This document shows, in pieces, positions 1-55,132 of a stretch of 64,000 nucleotides of DNA. The translations under genes and the position numbers were made by a program. Source of the DNA: Marsupella aquatica (lineage: Eukaryota; Plantae; Marchantiophyta). The DNA lies in the NCBI GenBank assembly GCA_973895155.1, contig OZ316892.1, positions 21,329,619 to 21,393,618 on the forward strand. The letters are read 5' to 3'. The stretch's first letter is position 1, and every line of letters starts with the position of its first letter. Below the pieces are notes generated by a model. It was not told where the DNA came from, did not search any database, and saw only the letters and a program-made list of their open reading frames with translations.

Positions 1-2799
1 ACTCCAAACATTCCAAGACGGAACCTGTTTGTCTGTAACGCTTGTTCTATGCCCAGTTGGAAGAGAAATGAATCCCAAATGTGCTCCAATCCCAACATAT
101 GGCTTTCCATTAATTACGACATGGTTCGGGCACTCTACGCTCTTCGACATCCCAGTAATCCATCGATCTCCATCTCCCATCCAAGATGGCCTTGAGCACT
201 TTACTTTAATTGAGTTTGCAGTATCGGTCAAATTGCTACGAGCCAGGAAATGTCGCTGCCCATCCATCTTCAAACCACACATCCGAGCAACACCTTGAGC
301 AACTGAAACTTCCTCATCGTCGGAATCTGAAAGAATCTGGATGTTCCGCTTCCATTTCAAACGTTTTATACTTCCTAAATCCACTGCGCTCTTTGTTGTG
401 ACTTCGGCATCTGGGGACTGAGGTTCCTCACCATCATCTGCTCCACTCTTCAAACTCTCAGAAGCCGCTCCCTTCCTCCTCTCTATGAAGAAAAAGACAT
501 TAGTGTCTGTATATTCGACACCCATCCGGACTTAAAAATAAAAAGTAACATACAATTAACAGACTTACTTGGCTTTCCGGAAATCTGGGACCCATCTTTG
601 GATGTGTCCTTCAATGCTCCTTTTCTTGGCTTCCGTGCTCGACTCCTATCCACTATGGCAGCTACACCAAGACAAGCTTTTTCCATCGCCTCGCAACCAC
701 CAACTTCAGCATCAGTGGGTGCCAATTTGGACTCGGAGATGTAAGATTTCGGAAGGAATCCTCGATTGATCATGTGAAAAGCTGCTTTCTCTGTAGTGTC
801 AAATGTCACAGACCATTTGTCCGAGTCCAAATACCATGGACAATGAAGAACCTCCCACTCGCTCAATCTCCTCGGAGCTTCACTTCCCTTGCATGGAAAC
901 ATACAATATTCCCCAAACTTATCACTTGTAGGGTCCTCTTTAACCCCGGCTATCCATGGGGAGAAACAGGCTGGGTAGGACCACCAGTAAAATTTGTCTG
1001 CTACTTCTCTGTCTACAAAAAATCGATACGTGTATCTCTTCGCTCTCCTCCGAAACAATGTAATGTCTACCTTCTCTCCTGTCTTGGGTGGCCAAATCTG
1101 CTTGAAGAAACGAGTTTTCACACGAGTTTGGAAATCCTCAAAATCCTCCTCAATGTCAAGGATTAGCGAAGCTTTCGTCTTCTCTGAAGACGTAAGGATC
1201 CTCGACTTAGGGACAGTAGGCATTACCTCAGAAACAATTTCAGACATGAAGGAAGACGAAATTGACTCGACTTGCTCCCACACTGCCCAACGATGAAGCC
1301 AAAGCTTAGTCTCACCATCTGAGAATTGACCTGGATGAAAGAATTTTTTCCGAAGCTCAGGATGACACTATGCCTCCAGGAGTGTACATCGGAGCTCTGG
1401 GGATAAAGAGGTCACACCAGTGAACAATCGAGCTCGATCAAGACCACAAGAAACATTTCCCCTGCCTTTATCATCTGTTCTCTGGGCCTCCTTTGTCTCG
1501 TTCTCGCAGTAGTTATGCATTTCGACACATTTCTTGAAAAAGTCTCCAAACTCTGGATTTAGTAATGGACCGACCTTTGGAACTTTCACATTCCAATCAG
1601 CAAGTTGTTCTTTCATCATGTCACGCATTGCTAAGTCCTGTGCAGCCTTGGAAAGGGGCTTGCCTTGAGCCTCCTTAAGAGCAAATTTCTTCTTCAGGTC
1701 CTCGGTCTGCGATGCAATGTTAGCAGTGGATAGAATATAAGTGTAGGCATCCAGCGTCATGTTCTTCGAATACCATGCCGCCTTCCGCACATTGGCCATC
1801 TTCTGCTGGAAAAGTTTGTAATTCTCAGCGTCGATGATATCTTGGTAAACGGATAAGTCATTGTTCAGAATCTTCTGGACGCGTTCAGCCTCCAAAACCC
1901 AGGAATTCTCTACATGACATTGAGTTAACCTGCCACAACATGCCTCATGTTAGCGAGATCGCTAGCTAAAAGTGACCTGGTAAAAATGAAATTTCAGAAC
2001 TATCTTATCATGAGAAGTCCCACTTGTTCAATGCGTGCATAGCCGACTCGATCTGAACGAAAGAGTTCTTTTCACCCTTAAAGATCTTGCAGACCACTCG
2101 AGGATGGTACTTAATATCATCCGGATGTTCCTCCGCCAGTTGACTCCACGAATACAATCGGTGGTTCCCATCGAAAACACAGAACATTTTGTCCTTGAGG
2201 ATCTGGAAAGAAACATGAGAATCACATTCGCGCTCAAACTCCTTGTTTTGCAACACCCAAATATCATCCCAAGTTTCGCGGATGGCATCTGTACAGATCT
2301 GGATTTCTCCATCCTCGTTTGTCATCTGAACGTAAAATCGAGGCGCATCCTCGATGTAACCCTGGGTTTTGAACTCGGACTTCAATGTGTCTATCACAGT
2401 GGAATCCTTCTGCAGAGACCGGACAATCTGCATGTTTCTCATCTGGCACAGAGGAATTCGGGGGGGAGCCAATGCAAATCCGAACTTATTCACTCCAAAC
2501 GAGTGAAGATGACGGTTTATGACAACCGTGTAAGGTTCCGAAGTGCTCGGATCAAACATAGGAGCAACTACATCTACCGTTGTCACCATCTTGGGCCACC
2601 TTGGAGTCTTCAATCTCGCCGCAAGCGCTTTCTTGTTCGCTGTGGACCTAGTTTCTCTCCTTGTCGACTCCCTCGACTGAAATGATCCTCTCGAAGAAAT
2701 ACTCTCTGGAGACAACGATGACTCCATGAAATAAAACCCTTCGGAGAAGAGTGCTCGAGCCCGGAGATTGCAGCGGCTGCACGCGTCAAAAATGTCCAC
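1..2799 (-). pseudogene. Spliced ParB/Srx-like + DNA amino-methyltransferase-like fusion gene (copy 1, runs off window)
   Basis: Exons ~2727/2799-2024, 1929-569 and 482-<1 join in frame at GT-AG introns. RIPL...R...LK.EF...GY...FCVFDGNHRLYSW is a ParB/Srx-type motif. The last exon reads ...GAHLGFISLPTGHRTSVTDKQVPSWNV, matching the MTase motif-IV region of copy 2. One in-frame TAG at 1368-1370. Confidence 0.75.
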
Positions 2800-5700
2800 A
2801 GACCACCTCCTTTCGGAGAATTAGGACAGCCGTACAAACTGCTACGAACTCCCTCCGAAGCCTTACAGAGTTAGGATAGTGAATACTGACAACGATCGAT
2901 AGTACGATGTAAGGAATAACAGAAATCTCCTGGCAGGGACCACTAGTTGTACTTTTTGGAAAACACGAAGAACAACCTTCACGACCGATAGTCTTATCCA
3001 TACAAAATACTCCAGGTGTCCTGTGTAATTTGTACCGTTGACATTATGGTACCCGTTGACTATTCCCAACGGAATCCTAACGGTAAACTTCGTCAAAAAT
3101 CAGTTTGACTTTTTGGCTAGCGAGATCGCTGGCATAAACTCAATGACACAGATATCCTTAAAAAGAGTTGAAATCAACGGTTTGCTTGCCATAAAACTAT
3201 CAAAACCAAGCTAGCGAGATCGCTAGCATGGGAGACGTCCTATACGTTGAGTAAAAGACAAAATAACGGTAAAATCAACGGGAACAGATTAACAATCTGT
3301 TCGGATTGTTGTTTCCGTTGGGAAAAAACCCAGTTTTGGTCCTGCAAATAGGATTCGTATGGGCGATTCAAAACATAGTCGTTGTATTTTTGTATGCTGA
3401 GAAGAGATGATGTCGATGAATTCCAAGGTGGTTTTGGAGCGTAGAATGACGGGAGACGTGGTGGTACTCCCAAGTGCCCCTGACTCGTCAGAGGTTAGGG
3501 TGACAGAGTCATTCCTTGCAACTCGTTTTGGAATTCCAAAAGATGACCTTGTCATGAAGTTGTTTGAGTTGTATTCTCAAAATGGGCCACGGAGTCACGA
3601 GTTGAGAGAGGACAGTAGTACTTCCGAGAAGGTCTGGACGCTGAAGGTTGGATCTTGTGTCGAGGTTATGTCCAGTAAAGATGGTTTTCCTGATGTCATT
3701 TTGGAACCCATGGAATTAGATCCCATTCATCAAACTCCTGTGATTGATTTTGGGACGCCTCCCAAAGACAGAGCTCCCGAGGTCATTGAAATATCTCCAG
3801 AGAGTATAAGGCAAGACACATCTTGTGGTTCGATGAAGTCACAAGATGGTTCCGAACCCGAAGGGTTAGCGACAAATTTGATTGAAAGGAATGGGGATAG
3901 CATGACCACAGTGTATCAGATGAGTGCCTATGACGCTTTTCTCAATATCAGTGGAGCGAGTGAACTTGCACAATTTAGAAGAGGGAATCAATGGAATGAA
4001 TGTCAGGTTTCGACTTTGCCATCGACATACAATGGTAACGTTGTTTTTGAACTTCCTCCAGTCGAGGGGGCCGGGAGGGGAGGAGGTCTCCAAGATATGG
4101 ATCGAGAGAAGGACGGCTATCCTTGGACGAGACTAGTCACTACATCTGCGAATTTGAAGCCAAGGTTTCATTGGGCTGTGTCGAAAGTTCGTTGCGCTGG
4201 AATTCTTGAATGCCATAATTTGGGTTGCCGGAAGTTGAAACATACTGGAGTCAAAAATGACTGCGCTTTCAGAGGGAAAGGGTTGCTGACTAACATCTTT
4301 CGTCTTGGAGAGCAAGTGAGTGAGGGCGGACTTGTCTGTGGCTTCTGTGAAGAGAGGCCTCTCTGTATTCGAGAATGCCCGGCAAAACTGTTGTATGTTT
4401 ACCCTAAGCCAGGTTTGGAGAGTCACATTTCAATGCATATGTCCAGATTGGCTATGCATATGGGATTCCACGATCACCCTGTTTGGGAGGGAAAATCTCG
4501 TTCTGCGAGAAAAACAGCGGAAGATGTTGTTTTAGGGGTCCATCGGTTGAATCCAGTCTCAACTCCCGCACATCTGAGAAACCAGTCAATTGGGAACCTT
4601 GTCTCGCTATTGCATCCAGAATCATCGGCTCAATTTTTGAGAGAAGAACAACAAGAAATTTGGAGTTCGATTGGAGTAGTTTCTACCGCTCCAAAGTTCC
4701 AAGCTATTCTTCGGAGTGTGAAGATGGATAATCCTAAAAAAGGAGAACTTGACTCACTTTGTGAAATGCAATCACGTAACAATTTCCCTTTCGTGCAGAG
4801 GTACCTGTTTCCCAGTCAAGGAAACAGAAATGATCGAGCGCATGTATTCAAAATGAGTACAAATGGTCCTGGATCGGGTGTGGAAATTTTGAGGAGCATG
4901 GAGGCTGGAGGAGCATTGGAAGGTTTGTGGGTCAGTTTTGACGTGATGCATCGTATCACTAGTGGATGGTTGACCTTTAGCGCACACGTGTATGACCATA
5001 ATTACCGTGCTCTGTGTACAATTTTCACTTGCGAGTTGAGAGCCGAAGACACAGAGTCGCTTGAAACTGCGTGGAGGTTAATGGTAGATGTCGCATCCAA
5101 GAATGGAGTGCATAATCCCATTATTGGAGGATTCATAGCAGACAATGCGGAGGCTGGCTGGATTTCTGTGAGAAGGGTATTTTTTGGGGGTGTCAGAAAT
5201 CCTCTGAAAGAGCATAGTGATGCTTTCCATCTCTCTCAATCCCTCAGAAGACACACTTTGGAGGGGATCAAGGAGGGGTGTCATGCGGAGCACTATAAGA
5301 TGTGGGAGAAGTTAAGAATTGCTCCAACATACGTCGAAGCATATCGTATCGCCGAAGACATTCAAAAATGGTGGAAAGAGGGGAATTGTCACCCATCCAA
5401 GCTTCAATCACTACAAGGGTGGATTTCATGGTGGGTTGTGCGGTGGAGACAATGGGGTAACTTTATTCGTGTGGTGAGTAACGGTGAATTCTTTCTGATG
5501 AGTTTAAGCTAGCGAGATCGCTAGCAATAAAACTTATTTCGTAAATGTATTTTGGTCACCGACTGAAACATTAGACTGTCTCAAAATAGACATATCGCTA
5601 GTGAATACAAGTTGTAACTCTGCTCATTTTTCAGACGCAAACTGCGAAGGAGTCTGCTCTGATGCCAAACTGTGCTGGAGCTGAATCTGCTCACGCATCT

Positions 5701-7684
5701 ATGCGTTCCTGCCAGCCGAAGAAGAAAATTGGTTTGATTGAAGCCTGTGAAGTTGACCAAAATCGAGCAGCTGGACAGATTGCAGCGTTCACTGCATACT
5801 TGGAAGGGTGTCACCGTGGGAATGGTCCTACAATATTTGAGCTGGCCTTCAGAAATGCAGATACAATGGGGTCTATGGATGCCTATGAGAAGGCATCCAA
5901 TCTACTATTTGAATCATCTGGAAAATATGAGTTCTATAGAACTGTGCCTTTACATGGAGATCTTAGAACAACGTCAGGAAAACGGAAGGGTAGTGCTTCT
6001 GCTTCTATTCATGAAAACGATTCTCATAGACATGATAAGATATTGCGCACAATGGCGTCGCGGTCTAGTTTGAAAAGGAGAAATCTTTACACAGAATTTG
6101 GTAACTTCAGCGGTGCTTCTGATATTGGTGGACCTTCAGACTTTCCTGGTGATGAAGACAACCCCACTTGCCATGGACCTTCTCTTCCTCATGAAGTTAT
6201 AAATATATCAGATGATGGTGAAGATCTTAGCCGTGGAGATACAACATAGGACCCGAACTACGTTGGAGAAATACCATAGCCTCAAAATAATCGGGATGAA
6301 ATTCGGGATGCACCCCGAAGGATCCCTTTTGTTGAAGAGGTTGATGTGACATATGGGACCTGGCACTTGAGGCGGAGTGGAAAAGGGAGTGGACCTGTTT
6401 GCAATGGACGAGTGGAACGAAGTGTGTTTGGAAGAGATGAGTGCAGGAATCTCATCAAAGAAACTGGAATGAAGGCATTCCGGGCTGGAGTGGTTGGTGT
6501 TGCGATTCACGGATTGAGGTTGTCATCTCCACATCGTCAGCTTCTATACTTCTGTCCGAATAATAGGTGCCATAAAACAGGTGGCAGAAGGACTCTTGCC
6601 CAGCTTCCGGAACCACCTGAGGCATTGCAAGTCCAGCGTGGGACCAGGCTGACCCCAACAGAGATTGACTTTCTTCTTCGAAATGGGATTGAAATCAGAG
6701 GATTATCATACTCTGATCCAGCACCGATTGGGTCGTTCTCCTCTCCAAATCGTGTTGACCTCCGAATTGATGTGAACTCCTTCCCAGAAAGAGTTGACAT
6801 TGGTATTCCAAACCGTAGATTCAAGACCCGGAATGGGAAAGGCGTTCGTCAACGTTTCTAGAACACCCGGAGCTTGTCAAACGCATTCGATCTGCGACTG
6901 ACGAACATATGAGAGTCATTGGAAGTGAGAAGATATGCCTCGGAAATGGGTGGGGATGGCAATATCTTATCGTCACTCACGAGACAGATTCTAAAATTGC
7001 ACACAAGTACTGGGTCCAAGTGTGTTGCTTTCCTTCTTGCTCATGTGATGACTTCTACAAGAGACACACGAGAGGAAGACCCTATATGTCTTGTAAACAC
7101 CTCCTCTGGGTGTACTTAAACAAGTTCTCACTGAATCTAGATAGAGACGATCTTCACTACAACACTATCGGCCGGTTTTGCGAAGACAATCTCATCGCAA
7201 CTAACAAGCCCTTGATTTTCATAATTCTGGCTATTGCGAACATACACGCATCGCACCCCCTTCGCACTTTGCGAACCTAATAACTTCGCACGCGGACCAT
7301 CGCAACGGCATCGCAACATCATGGCAAACCCGACATATTTGGATCTGAAGTTCTGAAGTTAATTGACTCAAAAAGTGCGACGCCTTGGGGTTAATATTGT
7401 GCGATGGGAATGAGTTCTTAAAGGGTTCGCAAAATTATGATCACACAGGATTCAATACATTATTTGCGAGGGGTTTTCCTTGGAACCCAATGTGGAAGGC
7501 AAAATTGTTGTTTTATAAAATGGAAAAGCATGAACAAAATGATAGGGCTTCAAAGAACCCTATACATGGACAAGAGGGGGGAAATATCTGATGCTAGGTC
7601 CGCCCTTCTAAACCTATGCTGCCTCTTCCTACCCTAAGCTCCGGCATGACAAGTCACTCTCATGCATGTATCTCTACAAAATAA

Positions 7685-9739
7685 CTAGAATGGGCTCTTG
7701 CGGCTCCTCTTGGTTGGCTTCTTGGCTGGCTTCTTGCCCTTATCCTTCCGGGGATCCTGTTGGTGACGGGTGTGTGATGGCCGTTGGCGCTCCTGCTCCT
7801 GCTCCTGCTCCTGCTGCTCCTCTAGCTCCTCCTGCCCCTCCTGCTCCTCCTCCTCATCCTCAGGGTCCTCCTCCTCCCCCTGGTCATCAACGTGTGCTGA
7901 TGACACACGACTACCACCACTACCACGGTGGGAAGAACCTACCTCACGACTACTCCCCCCCCCCGAGCACCACTAGTACCAGGAGTAGCCCCCTCATCGT
8001 CATCACTACTGGTCACATCAGCACCCGACCCCTCAGGCTCATCCAAATCCTGCATCCATTACATATCATTAGTTTCCGCAAGACATAAAGGGTCACTCAC
8101 AATGTTCGCATGCTAATCATATGGTTCACACTTAGACACTTACAGTAGCCAACTCGGCATCTACCATCGCAAAGAGGTACTTTCGTCCATGCTCTATCGC
8201 CACCTCAATATGCTTTTTTGATATCTTCCTTTTGTACCTCCGATACTGCCATGCATAAAACCAATTAAAATTGGTTAAATTTGCCCTTAAGCATACCCTA
8301 TAGCCACAAGTGATGCCTAAATCCTCAACTACTAAACATGACCCAAAAAAAATTTAAAATTCAAATTTGCGAACCTATAAGCATAGCAACTTGCAAACCA
8401 CCTTTTTTTGCGAAGGCGTTGCGATGGAGTTTGCGATGCGCATTTGTTCGCAAAGGCATCGGAAAATTGAAATGGAAAAAGTCTATGATAGACTTTGCGA
8501 GGGGTTTGCGAACAAATACGCATCGCAACACCTTCGCAAACTGTGTTCCCGAGAGTTTTTAAAAATTTGCCAGAAATTCTAAGTGTCAGAGTTGCCCTAA
8601 ACTAGTAACCAAGCAAGCATGCACAACAGCAAGAACCTTCGGGGATGTCATTCACTTGCATTGCACAACTCTGAAAGGAATAGAGAGGTTAGGGAGGAGC
8701 AAGAGGCACTCACAAAGTGTGACTTGAGGCCGGGGAGCCCGCCTTGACCCAACTTGTGGACTGGATTGGGGGTGGATTTCACTCGTTTGGCTGCATCTGT
8801 GAAACGCTTGGGTGGCTTTCCCTCCTGGTCGGCCACCTTCTGCATCTCAGCTACCTTCTGCTCAAGTGGCTTCAGGTCGTGGTCAGGGGGGAGCTTCCCG
8901 GCCTCCTTTGCTTTCAAGGCTCGATCTAGATTGCCCTTCCACTCTTCCAACTCGTGAGCTGCCTTAATTTGCACCTCAATCTTGTAAAACGAATTCCAGA
9001 TGTCCTCGGTGAAGTGGAGGGGTCTGCGCAAGTTCCTGTATGATCTCAAGTCTTTCAGGTGGGCTCTAATCTTCATCCTGTCATGGTATCGCATTTGAGA
9101 CATAGAATTTGAAATCTTATCTGCCAACCATTGCTCATCTATGTCAGGCCCATTGCGAAATGCATCCTTGATTTGGTTGATGACCCTCTTTCGCTCTGCC
9201 TTCTCAATCTTCCCCCACTGCATGCCTCGTGAGAAATTGCTTGTGATAATCTGCTTGATTGTGCTCTTAGCCCCTGCATATGCTAGCTCAGTTGGAGTCC
9301 CACTCATCTCCAAGGCAATGAATGGAAGTTTTTTTCTTGCTTCCTCTTTCTGACGTTGCTCCTCCCTCTGTTTTCGAATTGAATCTCTCTCCTCTCTTCT
9401 CTTCTGCTTTTCTAGGGCTTGAGGAGAGGCAACTCCCGACTTAGTTCTTTCCTCTCTCTTCCTTTTTTTCTCTCTAGCCTTCTCTTCAGCTGCGGCCCTC
9501 TCCTCCCCCTCTCTAGTAGCTTGTCCTGCTACAATCCCAGTTTGCAAAACCTGTCCAAGAATGGCACTCAAAGAGGCAAGCCCTGCTGGAGAATTGAGAT
9601 TCACTTCTCCCAATTGTGCAGCACTGAGATGTTGGGCCACTAAGTCTGCCCAGGCATTCTTCTCTTTCTCTGGATTTCCCCCATTGCCACTACCACTACC
9701 ACTACCACCTTGCCCTCCACTCCCCTCACCGGTAGCCAT
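7685..9739 (-). CDS. CACTA second gene (TnpA/Ptta-like accessory protein), multi-exon
   Basis: 363-aa ORF 8648-9739 with a coiled-coil and a W..I...ER..V...I...F helical motif, ending H.LG.GG as in Ptta/En-Spm ORF2-like proteins. Acidic/basic ORF 7685-7906 is probably a downstream exon; exon structure not resolved. Confidence 0.55.
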
Positions 9740-10159
9740 AGCTCCCCTCTCTCACAGTCTCCCTCGTACTGTTGCGTGCGCCCCGGCCCTTCTCGTCTCG
9801 CTCAAAAACTGAAATGAGCCCGAATGCGAGCTCCCGCCGATGTTTATGCCGTTCAAAAACGGGTTTGCGATGACATACGCATGGGAAACTGCGAAGCCCG
9901 CGCCCTCGCAAATAGTCTCGCAACTTGCGAGGCACTTCCAAATCTATTCCCTTCGCAAAGCCATCGCAACCCGCAGAAGACCCAAAAAATTGTTCTCGAC
10001 CTCTGTTTTTGCGAAGCAAGTGCGAAGGTCATAGGTTCGCAAAAATATTCTCTAACTTGTGAAATAATTTGCGAGGCAGGTCTTATCGGTTTAGGGTTGG
10101 AAAACACTTTGGGGTGTCAAACGGCTATTAAGGTTTGTCAAACGACATTTAAGGTATGT

Positions 10160-11030
10160 TAAGTGCCCATAAGTTAACATGGAAGGGGTGTCAATGGATG
10201 TTTGGGTTGTAAGGATAACTAGAATATAAGTTAACAAAGGTTTGGGTTTAATTAAAGGTTAGGTTTATATTTGGTTTTAATCTAGGAGTATTTGGTTTAA
10301 TTAAGGGGGTTAAAACTTGGGTTAGGTTGGAATAAAAGGGTTGGGTTTAAATTAATGGGTTTGGCTTAGGGTTCAAGGTAGAGGTTTGCATTAGGTTGTG
10401 AGTAATTACAGGGGTTGGGTTTGGTTTTAGTTGAGGGGTTGAATTGTGGTTGTTTTTTAAAGGGATTGGGTTTGGTTTTTAGTTGGGGGGTTTAATTGTG
10501 GTTTTTTTAAAGGGGTTGGGTTTCTAATGTAAGTGTTTGGGTTGGGGTGTAACATGATATAGGGTTGGATTTGGTTCTAATTGAGGGGGTACAATTTTTG
10601 CTTAAGTTTTAAAAAAGGGCCTCAATTTAGGGGTTAGGGTGAAGTTTAGAATAACTATAGGGGTGGGGGTTGGCCTATATAGGTAAAGTAAGGTGTAGAT
10701 AGGGTAAGAGTTTTATATGTAATTGGGGGATTTGGGTTGGGTTTAGGGTAAAGGTTTGAAATTTTAATGAGGGATTTGGGTATTGGTTAGGATAAGGGTA
10801 AGGGTTTAGGGTGCTTGAGGGATTTGGGTTAGGTTTTAATGAAGGGTTTCATTTCATGGTTTGGGTTTAGGGTAGGGGTTTGGGTTTAGGGTAAAGGTTT
10901 GAATTTTTAATGAGGGATTTGGGTATTGGTTAGGATAAGGGTAAGGGTTTAGGGTGATTGAGGGATTTGGGTTAGGTTTTAATGAAGGGTTTCATTTCAT
11001 GGTTTGGGTTTAGGGTAGGGTTTGGGTTAC
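10160..11030 (+). repeat. G/T-rich telomere-like low-complexity tract inside CACTA
   Basis: Many GGGTTTAGGG/TTTGGGTT variants; internal ~150-bp duplication (about 10731-10877 vs 10880-11028). Confidence 0.85.
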
Positions 11031-11460
11031 TTATATTTCTTTGTCTATCTCATTAACATGGAGAGGAAAACTCTTTGGCGTTGTAGGGCACTTCCCCATG
11101 TTTTTTAAAGTTTTGGCTAATGCATGATAATGCCTTGCGAGAGCCCGGGCATCTGAAAGGTATAACATTTTCTCATGCATTTCTAGTCATTGCTGTAAAT
11201 ATGGAGGGTTACAATCTATCATCCTTTTTTTCTGGTTCACCATAAGGCATGGCTTAATTCATTGTATATTGGCAGATTTTCCCCTCCTTCCAGATTTGGT
11301 TCATGAAATTTGAGGCACAAGATCCGTCAAGGCATTGCTAAGCCCGGGTCTCATAAAGGTATTTTTCTGTCAATTCTTTTTAATATGTTTAGGTAGGGAT
11401 TATCAATGATGGTTTTGGTGAAGTTTTTACTAATCGCCTTCCAATTGCTATACTTGTCAG

Positions 11461-11694
11461 ATGTCTTCATCCTCTACAACTTCCACCACATCAGATTCCT
11501 CTTCCGATGAAGAAAGTCATCCTCCTCCTCAACCTGAACCAACCGTACGTCAACCTAGTGGTCCACCACGCCAACTTTGTGGTTGTAAAAAATGTGTGGG
11601 GATGGTTGTCCAAAAGTCATATGTATGTGCGGAGCACATTGCTCGATATGGCCAACATCGAGGTCTTACACCGGGAGCTTCTTCATCCCGTATG
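11461..11694 (+). CDS. CACTA transposase exon 1 (transposase-associated Zn domain)
   Basis: CGCKKC...VCAEHIARYG motif; phase-0 donor ATG|GTGAGT at 11695. Confidence 0.75.
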
Positions 11695-11806
11695 GTGAGT
11701 TGTAAACTTACTGTGATTTCCATTTTATTTTGTAAATCTTGCTAGGTAGCATAAAATAAAATTTGGGAGGTTCATCACACTCACTTGGTTCCATTTCTTC
11801 CTATAG

Positions 11807-12622
11807 GTATCCAGTAGGCCTACACCCACTACACCAACACCCTATGTTCCCTCACAAGGAGTTCTAGATGCTATAGGCTCGGCACTTTCACAAGCTTTTC
11901 GTTTAGTGGCAGCAGGGCAAGGTAGTGTTGGGACAATTAAGGGTGACGGTATTGTTACAAGAGGGAAAAAAAAGTCAAAAAGACAGCCTAGAGGGGAAGT
12001 GGATCAGTACACTTGTAGGGTTGATGGTAGATGGGGCCCTTGTACCTTCACAGGGAAGTGTGTTCCTATCATAAAGGATTGGAATCCGGAGTGCCTTGGT
12101 TTGCCATGTGATTTAACCTATGGTGAGGAGATAGAAGTTTGGGGAAGACGTTGGGTTGTCAAGAGTTCAACCCTAGGGGAGAGGCATGGGTATGGGATTT
12201 TCTCTTGTCAAGACATTATTGTGGATGATATGGGTGGAAAAGGGCGCTCTTCAGATGGACCAACGTTGTTCCCGTATGGTGGACCCATTTACAAGAGGAG
12301 ACATTGGAACATGATCCTTGTTCAACACCCTGAGTGGAAGACTTATGCATTGGACATGGATACTTTTGATGGTTGCACCAGAAAGTATTGTGACCAGCGT
12401 ATAATTGATGGTGATCCCATCCGTAGTGGGAATATTGCCGGTTTCATCAACAGTACTGTGGGGACCCGGCCTAAGCATAGGAAAAACTGTGAATGGGTTT
12501 TTGTTGATGGTCCCCCTCCAGCCCCTTATGGGCAGAGATATCATCATGACCATTGTCTAGTTGTAGCTAATAGGACCATTCTGGTTGGAGAGGAGTTGTT
12601 TACACATTATGAATGGGATTAG
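11807..12622 (+). CDS. SET-domain protein exon (putative lysine methyltransferase) within CACTA
   Basis: Acceptor CTATAG at 11806, open frame to stop at 12622. GYGIFSCQDI, YGGPIY, IDGD..GNIAGFINS, NCEW and LVVANRTILVGEELFTHY follow the SET motif order (GxG, RFINHS-like, GEELxxxY). Confidence 0.8.
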   Translation, partial: VSSRPTPTTPTPYVPSQGVLDAIGSALSQAFRLVAAGQGSVGTIKGDGIVTRGKKKSKRQPRGEVDQYTCRVDGRWGPCTFTGKCVPIIKDWNPECLGLPCDLTYGEEIEVWGRRWVVKSSTLGERHGYGIFSCQDIIVDDMGGKGRSSDGPTLFPYGGPIYKRRHWNMILVQHPEWKTYALDMDTFDGCTRKYCDQRIIDGDPIRSGNIAGFINSTVGTRPKHRKNCEWVFVDGPPPAPYGQRYHHDHCLVVANRTILVGEELFTHYEWD

Positions 12623-12772
12623 GATTACTTTAGGGACATGTATTATATGTTCATCGTATGTGAACGTATGTTTTGTAATGACATGTTCTTTTTATATTGT
12701 TAATAATATGTTTCAAGCACTACTATATTTGGCGTTAATTTCATTGTGAATACTTTATTGTATTTTCTATAG

Positions 12773-15700
12773 AATGTGCGGCCTAGTCAAGATATGTTGC
12801 CAAGGAGGTTGAGAGCTACATATCAAGAAATGGGCTTGCCACAAGACGGGGAAACATCATCAGCAGATTCCTCATCAAGTGACAATGATAATGACAGTCC
12901 AGATGAAGGGGCACCTCGGACAGATTATGAGGTCATGCAAGACCAAGAGTCAGCCATGGATGACTTCATGACAGATTGGTTTGGTGTAGACATTGGTGGT
13001 GAAGGAGGTGTCCCACCCAATGAAGGAGACCCTCCACCAAATGTTGCACATGATCCAAGGCCTCAACGTACACCTGAAGGACAAAAACAATGGGAAGAAG
13101 CTGAGGCACATGCTAGAACACCTATTTATGGGGGTGCTCGTTTGAATAGACTATCTGCCATCTTGGCATTGATGAATCTTCAGGCAAAACACAAGGCAAG
13201 CAATGCGCTACTATCGGATTTGTTTGCAATTTGCCATGATCTCTTGTTACCTAGTGAAAATGTGTTGCCAGGAACTTGGAAGGAGGCAAAGAGGGTTCTA
13301 TCATCCATTGGCATGGAATACCATATCATTCATGCTTGTGTGAATGACTGCATTCTCTATCATGAGACCAATGCCAGCGCAACTGAGTGTCCAATTTGTC
13401 AAGAGCCTCGATATGAAACCAACATGTTGACCTCAAAGGTGCCTAGAAAAGCTGTTCGTTGGTTTCCTATTATTCCTCGATTGTTGCACATGTACCGATG
13501 TTCTAACTTGGCAGAATTGATGGTATGGCATAAGACACATCGATCAGAGGCCGGTGTCATGCGGTTGCCAGTTGATTCCCCTGCTCACAAGCATGTGGAG
13601 TCACAATGGCCAAAATTTGCACGTGACCCTCGTCATGTGAGGTTGGGGTTGGCATCAGATGGGGTAAGCCCACACTCCCTTGGAGGGAAAGGGCGCCCTA
13701 CTTCGGTTTGGCCGGTGGTTGTTATGAATTACAACCTTCCCCATGGTTGTCCATGAAAAAGGGATTCTTATTGCTATCATTGATTATCCCAGGTCCATCT
13801 AAGGTAAAAAACATGGACACCTACTTGGCGCTCTTGGTTGGGGAACTCCATAAATTATGGGGGGGTGTATGGGCATATGATGGTCGGACAACTACAGGAG
13901 GGTTACCACGTGTCTTCCAATTGAAGGGAATCATTATGTGGACCATGCATGACTATCCAGGTGAGTGGTATGGATTTGTATTTTTTTCATGTATTGGAGA
14001 TCAAGTTTGTTTGGAAGGAAGTCCCTCTTTAATTCTATGTACATGAACTTTTCAATTCCTTTGACTCTAATTGAGAATGTTATTTTGTGAGCAGGGTTTG
14101 GGTTTGTTTCTGGGTTCCAAACTCAAGGGTACAAGGCATGCTCCACTTGTGGTCCAAGCCTTCACGATATGGCCAAGTACTCAAAATGGCTGCACAAGAT
14201 AATCTACCTTGGTCATACCAAGTTTCTTCCACTTGGGCATCACATGAGGTCTGACCCCCTTTTGTTTTCAGACTTTGACATGATCAATGATGATGAGCGT
14301 GAGATACCTGACCGCACAACATTTTCGTATTGGAAGTCCATAGCTGATAGGGTGGCCGACCCTGAAGATGCCATGGGATTTGATGGTAGTGGATTGACAA
14401 GGTGGGGTATACTGGCCACTTTGCCCTATTGGCCTGAGTTGAAGATTCATCACTTGTTAGACCCCATGCATATAGAGGGAAATGTTGGGAAGGCTTTGAT
14501 CAAGCACTTTTATGGGGAAAAGAACATTAATTTTAGGGAGGCATGCCAGGATCTAGAACGACATCTAGATGTATGGATAACAGTTGATGAATCCACAGGG
14601 ATGGAACATCGTCCTTCAGCTCCATGGGTTTTGAGTGTTGGTGAAAGAAGAGAGTTTCGACAACGCATAGGGCAGATGCGGTTTCCTACAGGCTATGGTG
14701 CCAATCTACGTAAGGCTTTTGGGATGGAGGACAGTCATAAATGGCCAATGTATCTCAAGACACATGACTATCATCATTTACTACAACATATACTTCCTGT
14801 GGCAATCATAGGTTTGGGGAGTGAAGAAGTGCAAGACGCCCTTTGGTCACTGGGCACTTTGTTGAGATGGATATGCTCAAAGGAAATATATGAAGAAGAG
14901 ATACCACGGATGGAGGTATTGGCAGCAGAGGTGGTATGCAAGTTGGAGAAGGCCCTCCCTCCTTCCTTCTTTGATTGTCAGGTGCATCTTCTCGTTCATC
15001 TTACAGTGAGGGAGGTTGCCATTGCCGGTCCGGTGCATTGTAGGTGGATGTATTGGCTGGAAAGGTATATGGCCGTGTTAAAGGCTTATGTACGGAACCG
15101 TGCACGAGTGGAGGGGAGCATGGCAACTGGATACTTGGCAGCTGAGAGTATGTTTTATTGTAGTAACATCTTAGCTACCATTGATCCTAGTTTTCCACGC
15201 ACTTGGATGGAAGAGAGGGAAGTGGAGGAGGACCGTTTAACAGGTGCAAAAAAAACACGCTTACTAACCGCAGTGGAGTTGACACAGGTTAGTACTTTCA
15301 TGTTGAGTAACAGCAATGTGATGGAAGATTGGAGAGAGTTTTATGAGGATGCAAAGAGGGAGAGTCGTCGCCCAAGGATCTTTCCAAAGTTCCTTGAGTA
15401 TATGAAGGAGAAAGTACTTCAGTTGGATGCTATGGTGGCCCAAGGTGAGAATGTATCACATTTTCCAGATATGACTCCTGAGGTTCGAACAATTGTTCAT
15501 GGTCCTTTAAGACTTGTTCAAACCAGAACAGCAATGTGGACACAAGGGAGGCATTTCAGGATTTCTGACCTTGATGAGAAGAGGGGAAGAACTTTTGATT
15601 GTGGAGTTCAAGGGCAGTTCATGCAAGATTCACAAAGTAGCCATCATGACACTAATGTAATCAGAGATGTGGTGCCTCACTATGGGAAGATTGAGGAGAT

Positions 15701-16043
15701 CTTGATCATATCCTATGATGCCGATTCCAAATTTGAAGAGTATGTCTTCAAGTGTAAGTGGTTCAAAATTCACCTGGTTGGTGATAATCGCACGGTACTT
15801 CTTGATGAGTGTGGGTTTACTCGACTGAAGACATCAGCAACTAGCTTTCAACCATCTCATTGGCAAACATCTGAACCATTTACATTCCCAAGTCACCTTG
15901 AGCAGTGTTTCTATATTCCGTACCCACCAGACCTAGAGTGGTCAGTTGTTATACCGTATGTGCCACGGTCCCGTTCCATTATCTCGGAAAAACCTGACGT
16001 TATTATTGTGTCAAATGGAGGCGAGGATGAGGACCAGGTTTGA
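12773..16043 (+). pseudogene. CACTA Tnp2/TnpD transposase (Transposase_21, DUF4218, DUF4216-like)
   Basis: HACVNDCILY, RLGLASDGVSP, YNLPP(W), HDYPG, LDPMHIEGNV, KTHDYH, GPVHCRWMYWLERYM, EPFTFPSHLEQCFY. Frameshift ~13740; intron ~13962-14095. Confidence 0.95.
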
Positions 16044-17408
16044 TGCACTAGTAGTAAAACTTGTTGTGGGCCCAGAATTTGACCCTAAACTAACTATCAT
16101 GGTTTTATTTATATTAACATATTACTTTTCTTCTTTTGTTTTACAAACACTTAATTGGACTTTGAAATTTCATCTCACTGTTATATATGCAACCTTAGCC
16201 GTTTCCAAAGCTATCCTCATGCATGCCACCTTTTCGAAAACCCTAGCTGTAACCTAAACACATGCATTCTCCATCTTGTAAAGAAACTCTCTCAAACATT
16301 TCCATTCTACAAAATTTTCAAACAACTCTCTTTGCAAAACATTTTCAAGCTTGTCAAGAAGCAACTTCTGAACACTTTGTGAATAACACACCATCGGTAA
16401 TTGTGATGCCAATGTGTTCTCAACTTTGCGAATCAACTGGATTCGGTAACTTGCGACTATTTATGCTTCACAATATTGTGCGAAGCTAATAGGTTCACAA
16501 TATATATTTGAGTACATTATTATCGCTAAATTATGAAACAAAAGAGATCCAAATGCAGTCGCGATGGTCGCGGATCCACAAATACTTTGCGAGACGAATA
16601 GTATCTGAAAGAGTTGCGAATTCAATCCGATCTCAAACAAATTGCGAGGTATTTAGCTTCGCAACACCATGTTGCGAACCTGTGAGCATGGTTTATTGTG
16701 ATGCGTGTTTGATCACAAAATATCTGAAGTCGATGACATTGCAAGACCATCCCGGCGTAAAAAAAAAGCTTCGCAAAAGGGGCCAATATGTAGTAGTGCT
16801 TGTGAAGCAGCCAATTCTGACTGTTGCTGAAGTAAGGAGTTTGATTCCGTTGTAGTGTAGTTGACTTAATCTCTATTATCCGTTGAGGTGAACGTTTCAG
16901 CGTCCCTAATTTTGTCGCCTTTTTGGTTTTCAGAACAGAGGAAAGTCGTCCACCTCACTAATTATATTGCGTATGCAATGTTAGCGAGGGTCTAGTACTA
17001 TTCTATACGTATCGGCAATAGTGTTTATTTTGCTAGCGAGGTCTCTGGCGTTAAACCCGTAAAGTAAAGTTTTATGTTTCCCGTAAACGGTTTCTTTTTG
17101 ACCAAGTTCTACATAACGTAGAGTTCAATAACTCATGTACTTTAATTGGTTTTTGGATATACATTCGGAGAAACAAACCATTTTAGTCACGCATAGTTTT
17201 GCTAGCGATGTCGCTAGCAAAACTAGTACTGTAAGTCCAAACATTGCAGTCGGAAATCTTCTCAAGAAGTTATTTCAAAATGAACAAAGATGTTCTCCCT
17301 TACAACTGTGTGTCGATATCACGTTTTCGGATCCCAGATCTACAAAATAGACACAGTCTACAAAATGTCTATGCCCTTACAACATGGACTACCGTTACTG
17401 TTTCCTAT

Positions 17409-17840
17409 TCAAGGGCTCGCTGCCTTGTACGCATCGGAGTCAGAGTCGGAGACTGTATCATAGTCGGAGGAAGCGAGGATGTTTTCCGTGAAATAGTCGT
17501 GGATCTCGAGGTCCCTCCAGTATGACTCCTCCTCTTCTCTCTTCCACTTCGCCGATACCCCCTTACAGACAGGCGCTTTCGAACGAGAAGAAACTTGTGT
17601 GTGGGAGACCGGATTCGTCAATGTCTCCTTACAAGGTGCGGCCGTCTTGTAGTCCTTGGACAGGACGGGAGCCTTGCTACCGGAAGGGGATGTACTCCTC
17701 TTAGGTTCGTCGACAGTACTCTGAGTCTGCTCCGATTATGTGGACCTTGGAGGTGAATCCAGTTGACCGTCAGTTTTGGCGTTATATCGCCGAACTTCCA
17801 GAATCCATTTACGAGAAGATCCACCCTCGTTCCGTGCCAT
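17409..17840 (-). other. Possible small third gene of MULE copy 1 (unknown function, disrupted)
   Basis: ATG at ~17840 just after an acceptor-like TTTCAG; ORF fragments with an acidic tail (YWRDLEIHDYF..SDSDSD); flanked by the element palindromes. No recognisable domain. Confidence 0.3.
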
Positions 17841-19652
17841 TTCTCCCTGAAACGAAAACAAATGCGATAAGTTTACTTGAAATCTTTCGAAAAGTCTTCT
17901 TATGTTGACGAACAAGAAAGCGAATGACAACGAATACCTGATAGAACACCAAACTGCAAGTGGACAACATATGATAGAGAACGGGGATACCTCGATCCGG
18001 ATCCGAGCGGAAAATGTATGCTCCTTGCTTCGACGATAGTAACGACAGTTTCCAGGATGACAGTAGCTTCGCTGACAGTAGCAGAGGTCACAGAAGGGCT
18101 TCGACAATCGGGAACACAACAAGCAAATCGCGCTTCGAGTAAGCGTCGAGCCCAATAAAAGTCTGAAAGAATGGCTGAAAGGAAATGAATGGAAATGTTT
18201 CTTAAGGAGCGAGTAAGATATAGGGGATGGTGGATAGCTGGAGATCCTTCCCAACGGATTGGGATCTTGTCTGTTGGTTGTACTTAGATCTTGTCTGTTG
18301 TGAATTTCACGCTCGGTGTCCGGATGAAGCTTTGGATTCTGTCCTTGGATGCGCTCCCGAGATTGTTTAAGTCAAAAGACATGCTTCCTTGTCCCGTGTC
18401 ATTATGATTTATTCACGTCTTTAACGACTGCACGCCAAAGTTCGTGCGAGAATTATGGGTGTCACGATTGCTAGCGATTTCGCTGGCCTGACGTACGTTC
18501 CATGATGATGGTCACTTATAGGGTCTTTAAGTGGACTGTTGTGCAACGATTACGTGATATGTAAAAATGTGCGAGAATGATGGGCATAGTTATGACTAGC
18601 GACTTCGCTGTCCTGATGTACGGTAGAATTATATGTTGAATTATGGTGCCGTAGACGACCGTTCGTGTCCGGGGAATACGTAATATGTACCAATGCATCG
18701 TCGGGATCGCTTTTTAAACCCAATGGGAGTTAAATAAATAGGTGGAATAGAAGGTTCCTTTTAGGCTAGCGAGTGTCACTTTTTGCTAGCGATGTTGTTT
18801 TCGTGCTAAATTTTGGGTATTCCAAGGAGAAAATGATCCCGTGCGAGGAAATATTTTACTGTTTCCTCACACGCTACAATGACCCCTTTATAAGGAGCAC
18901 TCTTCCTTCATTCTACTTCATTCTTCTCACTTTGTGTCTACGCTCACCTTGTTTTGGTACGTGTCCATTGCAGTAAGTCATCTGGCTTGTTCATGTTCAG
19001 CCTCTGATGTGAAAGCTCATCGCAGTTGTACTCCTTAGAAACATTATAGCATTCCAGTTCCACTTTTACTTTTGGGGGAAACCCCCTCTAAAGTCCCGAC
19101 TGTTATAGACAATCTCGGCCTCTCCCGAAATCTAACAGGAATTCTATATAATGTCGGAGTACTTTCTGACCACTTTTGCGTTTGGTGGAGGCTTCTCTAC
19201 AGCCCTGTTATAGACAATCTCCATCTCTTCCTACTTTTAATTCTTGCGCAGGTTCTGGTCCTACACAACACTACGCCGTCCGTTGGTTTCTTTGATCGTC
19301 ATCGAACTCCCTGTACGTACTTCAAACCCACTTGAAACCCTACGTCCCTCTTACTTCTAGCTTTGTGTATTATCAATCAATCGAATCAGTATTCCTCCTG
19401 CCAGTGTAGTGAGATGTACGTAGTTTCATGGATTTAATATAGATCGATCAAATATGCGGTCTGAACTTCTCAACAGGTTTTTGGCTCCATAAGGAGATAT
19501 CTTTGGTCAAGAAATTTCATCGCAGAAACTACGTACATGTCCTTTTAGTAAGGAGATCGGGAGGTATCAACTACTAATATGGTGACTGTTTTCTTGCGTC
19601 AAACTTCCACGTACTTCGAAGACCAGTTCATTTTGTGGACCCTCAAGACATC

Positions 19653-20778
19653 ATGTCATTTCGATCGGAAGAACTTCTTCCAGGGATACCCAATAATGTG
19701 GCGTTGATGAAGATTACGACCAGATTACGAAGGAGAGACGTGGCTCTCCTGTCTTCACTTAATCATAGTTGGCAGCAAGTGATTAGAAGCCGACTTGTGT
19801 ACAATGCCAGAGTTTGCTGCCATTCACTAGAAACTTCTATAATCCTCCGGATTGGCACTAGTTTTTCTCAAATACACGATGGGATTTATCTTTATTCCCC
19901 CAATGACGAGAGTCTGTACCAACTTCCTCAAGTTCCACATGCTGTATTCGGGGCTGTATTTAGGTCCTCCAAGTTCATGGCTCTGGACGGTAACCTATAT
20001 GCCTTGGGAGGGATGAGCACAAATAATCGGAGCTACCAAAGAATGCACGTGTTGGATCTGGCAGCTGGGGATATACACTGGAAGGAGTGTGCAGCTATGC
20101 TACAACCAAAAATCTCCTTCCAATGTGGTATTATGGATGAAAAGCTGTATGTATTCGGTGGTACTTCCCCTGAGGATCCAACGTCCTATAGTTGTGCATC
20201 AGAGTTGTATGATCCCAAACTGGATGCCTGGTCTCCAATAAAGCCAATGGTACATGAGCAACTCCCCGTTCGAGTTATACATATGGGCGAGGAACTCTTT
20301 GTGGCCTGTCGAAATGGACTGGCATCATCATGGCAGGTTTATCATCCACTCAAGGATGAGTGGAGAGTGGTGAAACCAAGGACGGATCTGGCTGACAGAT
20401 TTTCAAATATTGAAAGCGTTTTCATGATGCAAGGAAAGTTCTATTCAGCCGACTCTGATGGATTCCATGTTTACAACAGTGACAACAAAACATGGGATCG
20501 TTGGTCGTCCATAGCGTATGATGGATTGGGACCCAACGAACTCGGTCAAGCTTGATCCATATTCAATTGTAACAGTTAATAATGAACTGTTTGCAATGGT
20601 GCGGTGGAAAAGGCAAGACATTGACCGAACCAAAAGATGGTATGTCCTTCGAAGCAGCGGATTCAGTAGCAACAACAGACCGGTTGTGTGGTTGATTAGT
20701 GATTGCCCTCCGGCATATGATACTTTACTGTCAAATTACTTTAATCCTCTACAATTGCTGTGTCCTATTGAGCTTTGA
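19653..20778 (+). pseudogene. F-box/kelch-repeat protein with frameshift near the C-terminus
   Basis: LLPGIPNNVALMKI..L..SWQQVI F-box; kelch repeats LYALGG, LYVFGG..ELYDPKLDAWSPIKPM; frame change at ~20540-20555. Confidence 0.85.
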
Positions 20779-21684: not shown

Positions 21685-23364
21685 CTAAGCCATCATCTGG
21701 ACCCACGTTGCTTTGCTGGGGATTCCGTCGTGGACGACGAAGAGCATGTAGTAAGAGGCAGGTGCAATGATGACGCTTGGAGGCGCTATTCCAGAGATAG
21801 TATACGAATCGCCTCCAAGAGATACTGGACGTCCAGTGATGGCAAGAACTAGCTGCCGTTGCCCCTGACTGAAGGCGTGTGTTGTGAAGGGTGCACTGTT
21901 CATAACGAGAGTCACTGTTCCCACTGGAGCCGTGGCGATGGTGAAGTTAAGCGCGAACGCAGTACCATACTTTAGAGTGGCTGGGGCGGATGTAATGCTT
22001 GGCCTAGAGGCATCATTGGACGAATCCAAGTATGGTGGTGAGAATGCCTCCACTCGAAGCTCCGTGGGAAATGGTCCCGTGAAAGTGTAGAAATGATGGG
22101 TGTTGCTGCCAGCGATAAGAATGCGACCATCGGGAAGGAGATTTGCTGTGGAATGGTACATGCGAGGGATTGTGGTTGGACTCCAAGTGGTGAAACGGGA
22201 CCCGGCAGTTGCATTGGGGTTGTAGTTCACCGGACTCAAGCATGGATTGGTCGCGTCACCCCAGCCCTCAGAACCATTTTTTGCCCCGTTTACTATTAAT
22301 AAAGTCTGATCGGGAAGCAGGACCATGTCACCCATCGTGCGTGGTGTTGGCATGGTCTCCATAGACCAAGTCGGGGTTGGGTCCGTGGCAACAATACGGC
22401 CGCAGGAGTTAGTGGCTGGATACTGAGCACCCGGGTTCATGAACGCTCCCAGCTGGGCACCACCGCAAACTAGAATCTCAGCTCTCGCATATCCATCCGT
22501 GGATCGAAGGGCCAACATGACAGAGCTCCCCGCAGAAGGGTAGTTGCGAGGACCTCCTGGAAGCGGAGGAAAATTGGATATAGTTTTGGCCGTTGTGTAG
22601 TCGTAAAGGATGGACAGGTTGTTTGCGAATATGAAAAGATTGCCATTGGGGAGGAGATGCACGTACGGGTACAGATTGTCGTTCTCATGGTCGCTGGTGA
22701 CTACCAGTAAATCAAGAATTGTGGAGTTCGATCCAGCCGGAGGAACGAACTCAACATAGGGAGTCGCACGGCCACCCACCACAATCAGTCGCCCATCAGG
22801 CAAGAGCTGGTTAGTTGAATACCATCGAGGCTGCTGTAGGGATGTAGTTTCGTCCTCCACCCAATCACAGGTTCCATCTGATTCGGGACATGGAGTGAAG
22901 CGCCGTATCTTCGTCAGCCCGTCGAAGTCCCCTCCCGTCTGCACTAGCACTCCACTGGCATCGAACTGACCGGACGAGCACCAAGTGTCTGTTGATATGA
23001 AGAGAGGGTGAACGAGATTAGTATCGGGGTAGAATTCCACCGAATGCGCAGTGCAGTCGTGTTTCAATATGAGGTCGTTTGGATCGTCTCGGCACTTTCC
23101 ATTGGGCAGACTTATGTTTGATGGGCCTGTGTCAGTTCTGTCCAGAAAAATGGCCGTGCCAAAATGTGTGATTGCGGTATGCATCGACGCGATTCCTACG
23201 TTCTCAGATAAAAGAGACCAATTGCCCTGCGCGCTCACTCGCGGCAGCATTACAGCGTCCCTCCATAACTGCAACAACACAATGCACACCAAGGCCGCTG
23301 CTCCTCTATTCCATCTAACAAGAAGGCTGCCCTTCATCTGCGACTCCGACCAACTGCCCATCAT
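21685..23364 (-). CDS. Secreted copper-radical aldehyde/glyoxal oxidase (GLOX, AA5), intronless
   Basis: GIASMH, DCTAHS, TDTWCSSG, RWYSTNQLLPDG, NLYPYVHLLPNG, PRNYPSAGSS, RMYHSTANLLPDG, THAFSQGQR; N-terminal hydrophobic segment; intact frame. Confidence 0.95.
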   Translation of the reverse strand: MMGSWSESQMKGSLLVRWNRGAAALVCIVLLQLWRDAVMLPRVSAQGNWSLLSENVGIASMHTAITHFGTAIFLDRTDTGPSNISLPNGKCRDDPNDLILKHDCTAHSVEFYPDTNLVHPLFISTDTWCSSGQFDASGVLVQTGGDFDGLTKIRRFTPCPESDGTCDWVEDETTSLQQPRWYSTNQLLPDGRLIVVGGRATPYVEFVPPAGSNSTILDLLVVTSDHENDNLYPYVHLLPNGNLFIFANNLSILYDYTTAKTISNFPPLPGGPRNYPSAGSSVMLALRSTDGYARAEILVCGGAQLGAFMNPGAQYPATNSCGRIVATDPTPTWSMETMPTPRTMGDMVLLPDQTLLIVNGAKNGSEGWGDATNPCLSPVNYNPNATAGSRFTTWSPTTIPRMYHSTANLLPDGRILIAGSNTHHFYTFTGPFPTELRVEAFSPPYLDSSNDASRPSITSAPATLKYGTAFALNFTIATAPVGTVTLVMNSAPFTTHAFSQGQRQLVLAITGRPVSLGGDSYTISGIAPPSVIIAPASYYMLFVVHDGIPSKATWVQMMA

Positions 23365-23558
23365 GAATCTTGATCGCAGCAATGCAGGACGTTGAGTTGA
23401 ATTGCACTATGCCACACAATTCGAACTGTAAGCTTCAAGCAGGGTGTCACAATCCCAACATCGTTTGCTGCCCGCTTTCACATAGATAATTGAAGTTTTG
23501 CTGATGTCTAGTGACAGCCTTCTCTCTAGATACAGCACGGCTATCTGTTTAGGGTGAG

Positions 23559-37396: not shown

Positions 37397-38233
37397 GCTC
37401 CGAACAAATTACTGTACACAAAGAACAACATAAAACCTTTAAAACTTTTCCATCATAGTGCAGTTGACATCATGTGACGGAGAACGAGAAGGATTGAAAG
37501 AATCTCATTGACCAATCCAAACAAAGACAGGTGGCAGGGACTATTTGAAATGAGTAGAATTCACGTCTATTTTCAAGTCATTTGTGGATGCAATGATGAA
37601 CGGGAGTGTATTGTTAAACAATCCAACGAAAAACAACACAAAGTAAGGAATTCATTCATACATGTTACCGTTAGAGGTAACCGTTGGGCAAACCAAAGTC
37701 ATCTCCATCGATACTAGCGCCCAACGCTAGTATCAAAAACCATTAAAAATACTCTCATACATGACAATGACATGAAGGAGATTATGTTAGCGCTGGGCGC
37801 TAGCTATGTATACCCCTTGTATTTTCCCAAGAAGTAACGATTCCAAAACAAAATGAAACGTTGAAATTGATTTTTTCAGCAATTCCATCAAAATCAATAA
37901 AATATTTCGCTCTGACTTGACAGTCCGCTAATGATAGCGCCTGGCGCTAGCACATTCAGTCTGGTTTCTAAGTTGAAACCCGAGTACTTCTTTATGGTAG
38001 CGTCGGGCGTTAATAATTATATGATCGCATTTTTTACACGTTACCGGTAAGTAGTGTCGTTGGCAAAACGACAAACTACATTTATGTGTCTGCATCTAAC
38101 GACTAGTACCCGTTTTGTCGTTTACAAATGATAATCTTCTGAGGTTTGGAATGAGTTTACTTAACTTAAGTCGAGTAATGTTCTCCTATTTTCTCAGTTC
38201 CTTTGTTTATCAAATTAACATCATTCTCCCGCA

Positions 38234-55130: not shown

Positions 55131-55132
55131 CA

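Follow-up and report, generated by a model that had tools for sequence, protein, structure and literature searches.

Can one transposon gene supply both a transposase and a chromatin-modifying enzyme, depending on how a single exon is spliced? The question is raised by a CACTA (En/Spm) element in a 64,000-nucleotide stretch of the liverwort Marsupella aquatica (contig OZ316892.1, positions 21,329,619–21,393,618; hereafter the window, in whose numbering all positions are given), where an exon encoding a SET domain lies inside the transposase gene. An earlier sequence-only reading had proposed that one donor serves both the SET exon and the Tnp2 exon, and its coordinates and phases (donor 11695, acceptors 11806 and 12772, and the SET stop) proved exact, with both joins in frame. 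We lean slightly towards a reading in which the SET exon is conserved, splicing goes two ways, and one of the products is a 349-residue predicted zinc-motif lysine methyltransferase, likely acting on chromatin for the benefit of the element.

Layout of the transposase gene and its SET exon

The gene consists of the following parts (counts of loci refer to the comparison set introduced in the next section):

11160–11460 (+): 5′ region, likely untranslated exon or intron, with donors at 11160 and 11359 and an AG at 11459–11460
11461–11694 (+): first coding exon, with a Ser-rich start and a CxCxxC-x13-H-x4-G motif (transposase-associated-like, predicted zinc site)
11695–11806 (+): short intron of 112 nt, phase 0; GT in 19/19 loci, in-frame AG in 16/19
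11807–12622 (+): intact SET exon, comprising a linker with a predicted helix, an N-terminal extension of ~55 residues, the SET core and a stop
12623–12772 (+): AT-rich spacer of 150 nt, the 3′ part shared by the SET message and the long intron; identity 0.44
12773–13960 (+): Tnp2 exon, PF02992 in two frames; the frame shifts near 13740
13961–14094 (+): GT-AG intron between the transposase exons, preceding the last exon
14095–16043 (+): last transposase exon, with the Tnp2 end, DUF4218 and DUF4216 by Pfam

From the ATG at 11461, the frame runs for 234 nt to the donor ATG/GTGAGT at 11695, in phase 0. The near acceptor (TAG/ at 11806) opens a 271-codon SET frame with its own stop at 12620–12622, and the far acceptor (TAG/ at 12772) opens the Tnp2 frame; as the donor and both acceptors are in phase 0, the joins 11694→11807 and 11694→12773 are both in frame, the former giving the protein of 349 residues. 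Joining donor 11695 to the near acceptor would thus yield a short zinc-motif SET protein ending at the stop at 12620, while joining it to the far acceptor, skipping SET, would yield the transposase. Because one donor joins either the near or the far acceptor, the two products would exclude each other while sharing the N-terminal Cys/His module, an arrangement that the DNA makes very probable. Among the 24 conserved GTs in the SET core and spacer, the best scores 0.24 as a donor, compared to 3.85 for 11695 (rough home-made matrix). Neither join is found among the joints listed for eight of the nine sequencing runs, which were compared as contigs with library type unrecorded, and which carry no weight on this point either way.

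On the same rough matrix, the donors at 11160 and 11359 score 4.4 and 5.6, compared to 3.9 for 11695, and a donor and an AG upstream of the ATG recur in most loci. Because ATG 11461 follows an AG and two strong upstream donors, the exon at 11461–11694, which the sequence-only reading had numbered exon 1, is probably the first of the coding exons. The zinc-binding transposase-associated domain assigned to it stands as a Cys/His motif, which was found in 16 fetched proteins and is present in the Riccia model P0089 (14.9 bits against PF13963), while the match of the exon itself to that profile falls below the cut-off, as discussed further below.

The far acceptor opens a Tnp2 frame, as had been proposed, but in the window copy this frame shifts near 13740. 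Contigs from all eight runs (4/4 and 4/4) include versions with an extra base at 13738–13740; the shift is either a real lesion or an assembly slip in a C run, the two being indistinguishable; Tnp2, DUF4218 and DUF4216 are all present (Pfam) notwithstanding. A conserved Met at codon 8 of the Tnp2 exon makes a separate start possible. Conservation in the seven codons that lead up to this Met is at the level of coding sequence (0.67, in a small sample); one of them is a Ser encoded by AGT in one case and TCT in the other, and a comparable stretch precedes the Met of a Riccia model. As these codons are conserved despite the in-frame stop that precedes the far acceptor at 12772, an upstream coding exon for Tnp2 is indicated.

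Conservation and selection among bryophyte copies

The closest named relatives of the element are from Calypogeia fissa and Sphagnum. Searching 1.84 billion representatives with the SET sequence gave 93 matches at E ≤ 0.001, at least two of which, both long repeat proteins, are false; records were consulted for 30 of the 93, and nine of these name an organism, in each case Riccia or Calypogeia. For comparison, we used 34 metagenome loci, mostly 80–97% identical to the Sphagnum model P0003 (where exon-only matches allow). Since the loci are mostly of one family, the counts given here are not independent. The first coding exon is found in 18 of the 19 loci that have 300 nt upstream, and Tnp2 in 19 of the 23 that have 300 nt downstream, with the remaining four all having truncated SET matches; the CACTA left end is visible in five long loci. 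The donor is kept in 19/19 loci, the near acceptor in phase in 16/19, the AG of the far acceptor in 19/20 and the SET stop in 19/20, and identity across nine loci is 0.44–0.48 in introns (0.48 for the short intron and 0.44 for the spacer) compared to 0.70 in exons.

Comparing the window with these loci, dN/dS is 0.10–0.20 for SET (27 loci), 0.12–0.29 for the first coding exon (19 loci), and 0.09–0.27 (14 loci) and 0.09–0.13 (7 loci) for two parts of Tnp2, values that amount in effect to one deep comparison, given the relatedness of the loci and a dS (1.1–2.8) close to saturation. These ratios indicate that the SET exon is under purifying selection, as the transposase is. The sequence-only reading had named loss or degeneration of the SET exon in other copies as a result that would speak against it; instead, the splice sites and their phases are conserved in diverged copies, and the low dN/dS of SET points to an exon that selection maintains as a component of the element. 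Among the loci themselves, dN/dS is 0.48–0.68, and stops number 0.37 per 100 codons in SET and 0.49–0.50 in Tnp2. The decay among the loci is that expected after insertion, with SET decaying no faster than Tnp2.

The same exon order is found in gene models of Calypogeia, Sphagnum and Riccia. In Riccia, the Cys/His motif is followed by SET in P0089 (by pattern) and in P0049, P0066 and P0075 (by eye), and SET is followed by Tnp2 in P0084, P0123 and P0164; families that are about 36–37% identical keep this order. In P0054, a 423-residue record on a 2.1-kb contig, the Cys/His motif and SET occur together. A search for longer proteins with a Tnp2 piece gave one match at E ≤ 1e-40, which is a SET-Tnp2 model.

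In a tree of SET sequences, which is unrooted, includes 60 of 69 rows (nine with <150 aligned positions were dropped) and contains no cellular or viral SET, the window row falls inside a 12-row clade (support 100/99) with Calypogeia and Sphagnum, with Riccia and other Calypogeia rows lying far off. We note that moss and liverwort members that are ~69–77% identical share one tight clade, and that a single liverwort genome spans several far-apart lineages. A horizontal transfer from one bryophyte to another is possible. Searches of viral contigs and prokaryote genomes gave 19 pattern matches each, none of them confirmed; as the patterns reach only close relatives, these searches do not settle the origin of the SET domain.

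The SET domain and competing readings of its role

The SET domain proposed in the sequence-only reading is real: the exon matches PF00856 at 24.5 bits (E 3.6e-5), above the cut-off of 22.4, and the profile matches 55 of 69 family members at E ≤ 0.1. A structure model built from a 69-sequence alignment has a mean pLDDT of 90.9 (an earlier model from 20 close sequences reached 39.9), and all 41 rows listed by Foldseek for it are SET proteins, with E-values of 3e-7 for SET8 and 8e-7 for LegAS4. A wide structure search gave Z-scores of 12.1–11.1 for Set1, EZH2, SET7/9, SET8, NSD2 and LegAS4, tied within 1, with the top match (Z 12.1) superimposing at an rmsd of 2.5 over 124 residues and identities of 14–26% to the structural matches, the best of which are histone lysine methyltransferases. 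A single-sequence search of the PDB with SET gave no match, nor did a search of PHROGs. As modelled, the SET fold is secure.

Across the 69 aligned proteins, near-invariant positions (exon numbering) are G128 (63/66), G130 (65/66), Y162 (67/67), Y180 (65/69), N215 (62/69), E263 (59/61) and Y268 (57/60). The motif I glycines, the knot-motif Asn and the ELxxxY tyrosine are thus all present, and the motif I Gly, the Asn and three Tyr remain near-invariant across 25–80% identity. We consider it fairly likely that the predicted SET domain is catalytically active, and, with less assurance, that its predicted substrate would be a histone lysine. In such a scheme, the Cys/His module shared with the transposase would bring the SET protein to the protein partner or DNA sites of the transposase, and the SET protein, once at the element, would write a mark that offsets silencing; we put forward this targeting and its effect tentatively. 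The broadest form of the argument, in which alternative splicing of its transposase gene would provide a widespread bryophyte CACTA lineage with a histone methyltransferase of its own, targeted by the zinc module and writing a mark that counters silencing, with the splice switch choosing between self-activation and jumping, is more doubtful still.

A number of results weigh against the reading that we favour. The near-saturated dS and the kinship of the loci have been mentioned, and only 5 of the 15 full-span loci have SET exons free of stops and frame changes. The first coding exon reaches 15.4 bits against PF13963 (E 0.022), where the cut-off is 27.7. The gene models that join this exon to SET are predictions; three Riccia models and one Sphagnum model run SET into Tnp2 instead, and of 11 relatives of the first coding exon, none joins it straight to Tnp2. 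On the structural side, no SET subfamily (SET8, ATXR5/6, SET1/MLL, E(z), Su(var)3-9 or vSET) stands out by Z, and the substrate is thus unreadable from the fold; PR-type domains follow at Z 10.8, within about 1 Z of the top match at 12.1. The divergent FINST motif and missing post-SET region of the sequence-only reading were both borne out. The canonical R-F-I-N-H-S is absent throughout the family, which has G-F/Y-I-N-S instead (GFINS for RFINH), with the His of the N-H motif replaced by Ser in 66/69 members and the position of the preceding Arg occupied by Gly in 63/69. N, H and Y are described as invariant catalytic SET residues in PMC3914023. The window copy stops two residues after its last Tyr, and among 53 tails following this residue, 39 have ≤8 residues and none has a Cys cluster. 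Because the His and Arg are replaced and no Cys-cluster tail is present, the cofactor pocket may be incomplete, and given the altered cofactor motif and the missing post-SET region, a dead SET domain is possible.

The strongest alternative accepts the same splicing and takes SET for a pseudo-enzyme: without transferring methyl groups, it would bind a histone tail or a host silencing protein, whether as reader, shield or decoy. The family-wide loss of the usual His, Arg and post-SET region and the closeness of PR domains speak for it, and we nevertheless consider it unlikely, as the motif I Gly, the Asn and the three Tyr are retained so widely. The His is also missing from LegAS4, which among solved structures gives the best sequence match and which has been solved with an H3 peptide; we take it to be an active methyltransferase. 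The pocket could be closed by an aromatic residue that 40 of the 53 tails have two places past the last Tyr, and vSET of chlorella virus PBCV-1 is active without a post-SET domain (PMC3914023).

Somewhat less likely again is an active enzyme with a non-histone substrate, such as the transposase or accessory protein of the element or a silencing factor of the host. The two element proteins are rich in Lys and encoded at the same locus, no histone-specific subfamily is favoured, and SET7/9 and SET8, which have non-histone targets, rank high among the structure matches. The top structural matches are, however, nearly all enzymes that act on histones, and published transposon SET domains have been interpreted as histone methyltransferases, with activity only predicted there (PMC12730594).

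In a further, improbable reading, SET would be a gene nested in the transposase intron, starting on its own and bypassing the first coding exon; in its favour, the Sphagnum-like copies carry an ATG just past the near acceptor, where many database records start. In the window copy, unlike these, a stop directly precedes the exon and the first Met is codon 142, past motif I (codons 128–130), making a self-starting gene improbable there and an upstream exon necessary, as no ATG precedes the first motif; Calypogeia P0001 likewise lacks an early Met, and the acceptor phase is conserved. Even less probable is a single zinc-SET-transposase fusion as the main product, made via a donor inside the SET exon. 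While the models P0027, P0084, P0123 and P0164 join SET or its linker to Tnp2, the first, third and fourth of these truncate SET ahead of its last motif, at points that differ between them, no conserved donor near the end of the SET exon scores usefully, and the SET stop is kept in all but one of 20 loci. Finally, a passively captured host exon without a role, to which the decay of most Sphagnum-like copies might point, is largely refuted by a dN/dS equal to that of the transposase, and finds no support in the stop densities (SET 0.37 vs Tnp2 0.49–0.50), in the exon order shared with the diverged Riccia families, or among the named search matches, where no cellular SET gene was recognised.

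The element in its window and in relation to known systems

The element spans 7155–16798 (9644 bp), has the ends CACTAC...GTAGTG, and is flanked by a 3-bp target-site duplication, CTT (7152–7154 on the left and 16799–16801 on the right). Further features of the element are:

7155–7185 (+): left terminal inverted repeat, 26/31 columns matching the right end, with one gap
16769–16798 (−): right terminal inverted repeat, paired with the left end
8648–9751 (−): accessory frame of 367 codons, divergently oriented, TnpA-like by position only
9865–10069 (no strand): TTGCGA/TCGCAA cluster, with more clusters near both element ends and at 8367–8534
10080–11030 (+): strongly G-skewed region between the divergent genes, with telomere-like TTTAGGG units (8 of the 15 in the window)

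The site also exists without the element, as contigs of 4/4 sequencing runs examined (two studies) join 7151 to 16799, skipping 9647. Around it lie MULE-like transposase frames (3401–16855, +) that are broken at 7154/16799 in their SWIM-bearing end, where the MULE label rests on motif inspection, Pfam having given no MULE match, and the SWIM match is weak (E 0.066, in the uninterrupted relative at 38231–42078). The frame continues through the empty site and matches this relative. Nesting in a MULE, as the sequence-only reading had it, therefore holds, but the methyltransferase-like gene ascribed to the host element lies mostly beyond the left window edge.

The accessory frame is 58% identical to a frame in locus L028 and is present in 11 of the 34 loci, with dN/dS of 0.07–0.17 in ten of these and saturation in the remaining one; it has no Pfam or PDB match of note and no Transposase_24 match. 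Downstream of it lies an acidic low-complexity frame (7700–7960, −), probably the second exon of the same accessory gene. The element holds 22 of the 28 TTGCGA and 15 of the 27 TCGCAA in the whole window, and these clusters are likely putative binding sites. Within the G-rich region, which is a possible candidate telobox promoter, is a 143-nt tandem duplication (10734–11019).

Elsewhere in the window, two related MULE-like elements (32300–42200; 1–7154 plus 16799–18800), with 30–55% protein identity, both carry a divergent cassette of a ParB-like frame and a methyltransferase-like gene. The ParB-like frame at 2011–2820 matches a ParB-like PHROG (E 0.032), and the methyltransferase motif is visible only in the second element, with weak scores in a gene containing a stop (33608–34980, −; PF01555 E 0.074 and Atlas scores of 0.81–0.85, leads only). 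This cassette calls to mind accessory genes for ParB and adenine methylase known from the Plavaka and Mutator elements of red algae (bioRxiv 10.1101/2025.02.11.637652). Another CACTA Tnp2, degraded and from a different family (46286–47844, −), has no SET by the family profile. The window also holds a duplicated segment of about 6 kb, nearly identical in its copies and containing gag-like and coiled-coil frames (50700–60300), probably retrotransposon-derived, an exon with NSD-like PHD fingers (61901–62374, −) and, by eye, host genes resembling an F-box kelch gene (19578–20555, +) and a glyoxal or galactose oxidase gene (21685–23406, −).

If the broadest form of the argument holds, a land-plant transposon would carry a catalytic writer of chromatin marks that belongs to a new SET family. 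The known plant anti-silencing factors VANC and TnpA are DNA-binding proteins, and transposon SET genes have so far been reported from oomycetes and red algae, with activity only predicted. The element supplies a land-plant SET domain belonging to an undescribed family, and because this domain is small, intact and confidently folded, and Marchantia or Physcomitrium is tractable, the idea of a transposon writing its own histone marks becomes directly testable. If active, a GFINS motif without a post-SET region would widen SET chemistry. The window copy is moreover distinct from the Sphagnum-like copies in that its SET, lacking an early ATG, depends on splicing.

Both transposon-borne SET genes and alternative splicing in En/Spm have precedents; no paper that combines the two in a land-plant CACTA element was found in the literature searched, which did not extend to Repbase, subscription journals and preprint supplements, where one may exist. 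In maize En/Spm and Arabidopsis EN/SPM3, TnpD and TnpA come from one alternatively spliced gene (PMC13547354; bioRxiv 10.64898/2026.08.24.746577). The window element shares with them the CACTA ends, the 3-bp duplication, a Tnp2 transposase and two predicted products per transcript, and we take a tie between the accessory product and epigenetic control, described for En/Spm, as a further shared trait. The alternative product of En/Spm is, however, DNA-binding TnpA without a catalytic SET (the term "SET domain" is absent from the accessible text of either source), whereas here the alternative exon codes for SET and precedes the catalytic exons, and the TnpA-like frame is a separate one that runs divergently.

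Among SET-bearing transposons, the accessory gene PAG2 of red-algal Plavaka (EnSpm superfamily) carries a PF00856 SET, and SET genes are also found in red-algal Helitrons (bioRxiv 10.1101/2025.02.11.637652). Plavaka is likewise a CACTA-superfamily element with a PF00856 SET of predicted activity, but PAG2, compared here by description and not by sequence, is a separate gene in elements of 17–19 kb, with an N6-adenine methylase fused to SET, whereas in the window element SET forms one of the exons of the transposase gene and comes with a Cys/His module. The HarbingerS and MuDR families of Phytophthora (cited in PMC12730594) are also DNA transposons with a SET gene, belonging to other superfamilies and hosts, with no shared exon in their description. 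Minimal SET domains (vSET, SET8, LegAS4/RomA) are similarly compact and lack Cys-rich pre- and post-SET clusters (PMC3914023 for vSET); the window SET differs from them in its 14–26% identity, family-specific N-terminal extension and GFINS, and vSET is absent among the matches listed. Finally, SETMAR too is an alternatively spliced gene with exons for both SET and a transposase, but it is a single-copy host gene in which a dead mariner transposase is fused behind SET (PMC8704517), whereas the gene in the window lies inside a mobile element, with SET and transposase predicted to be mutually exclusive.

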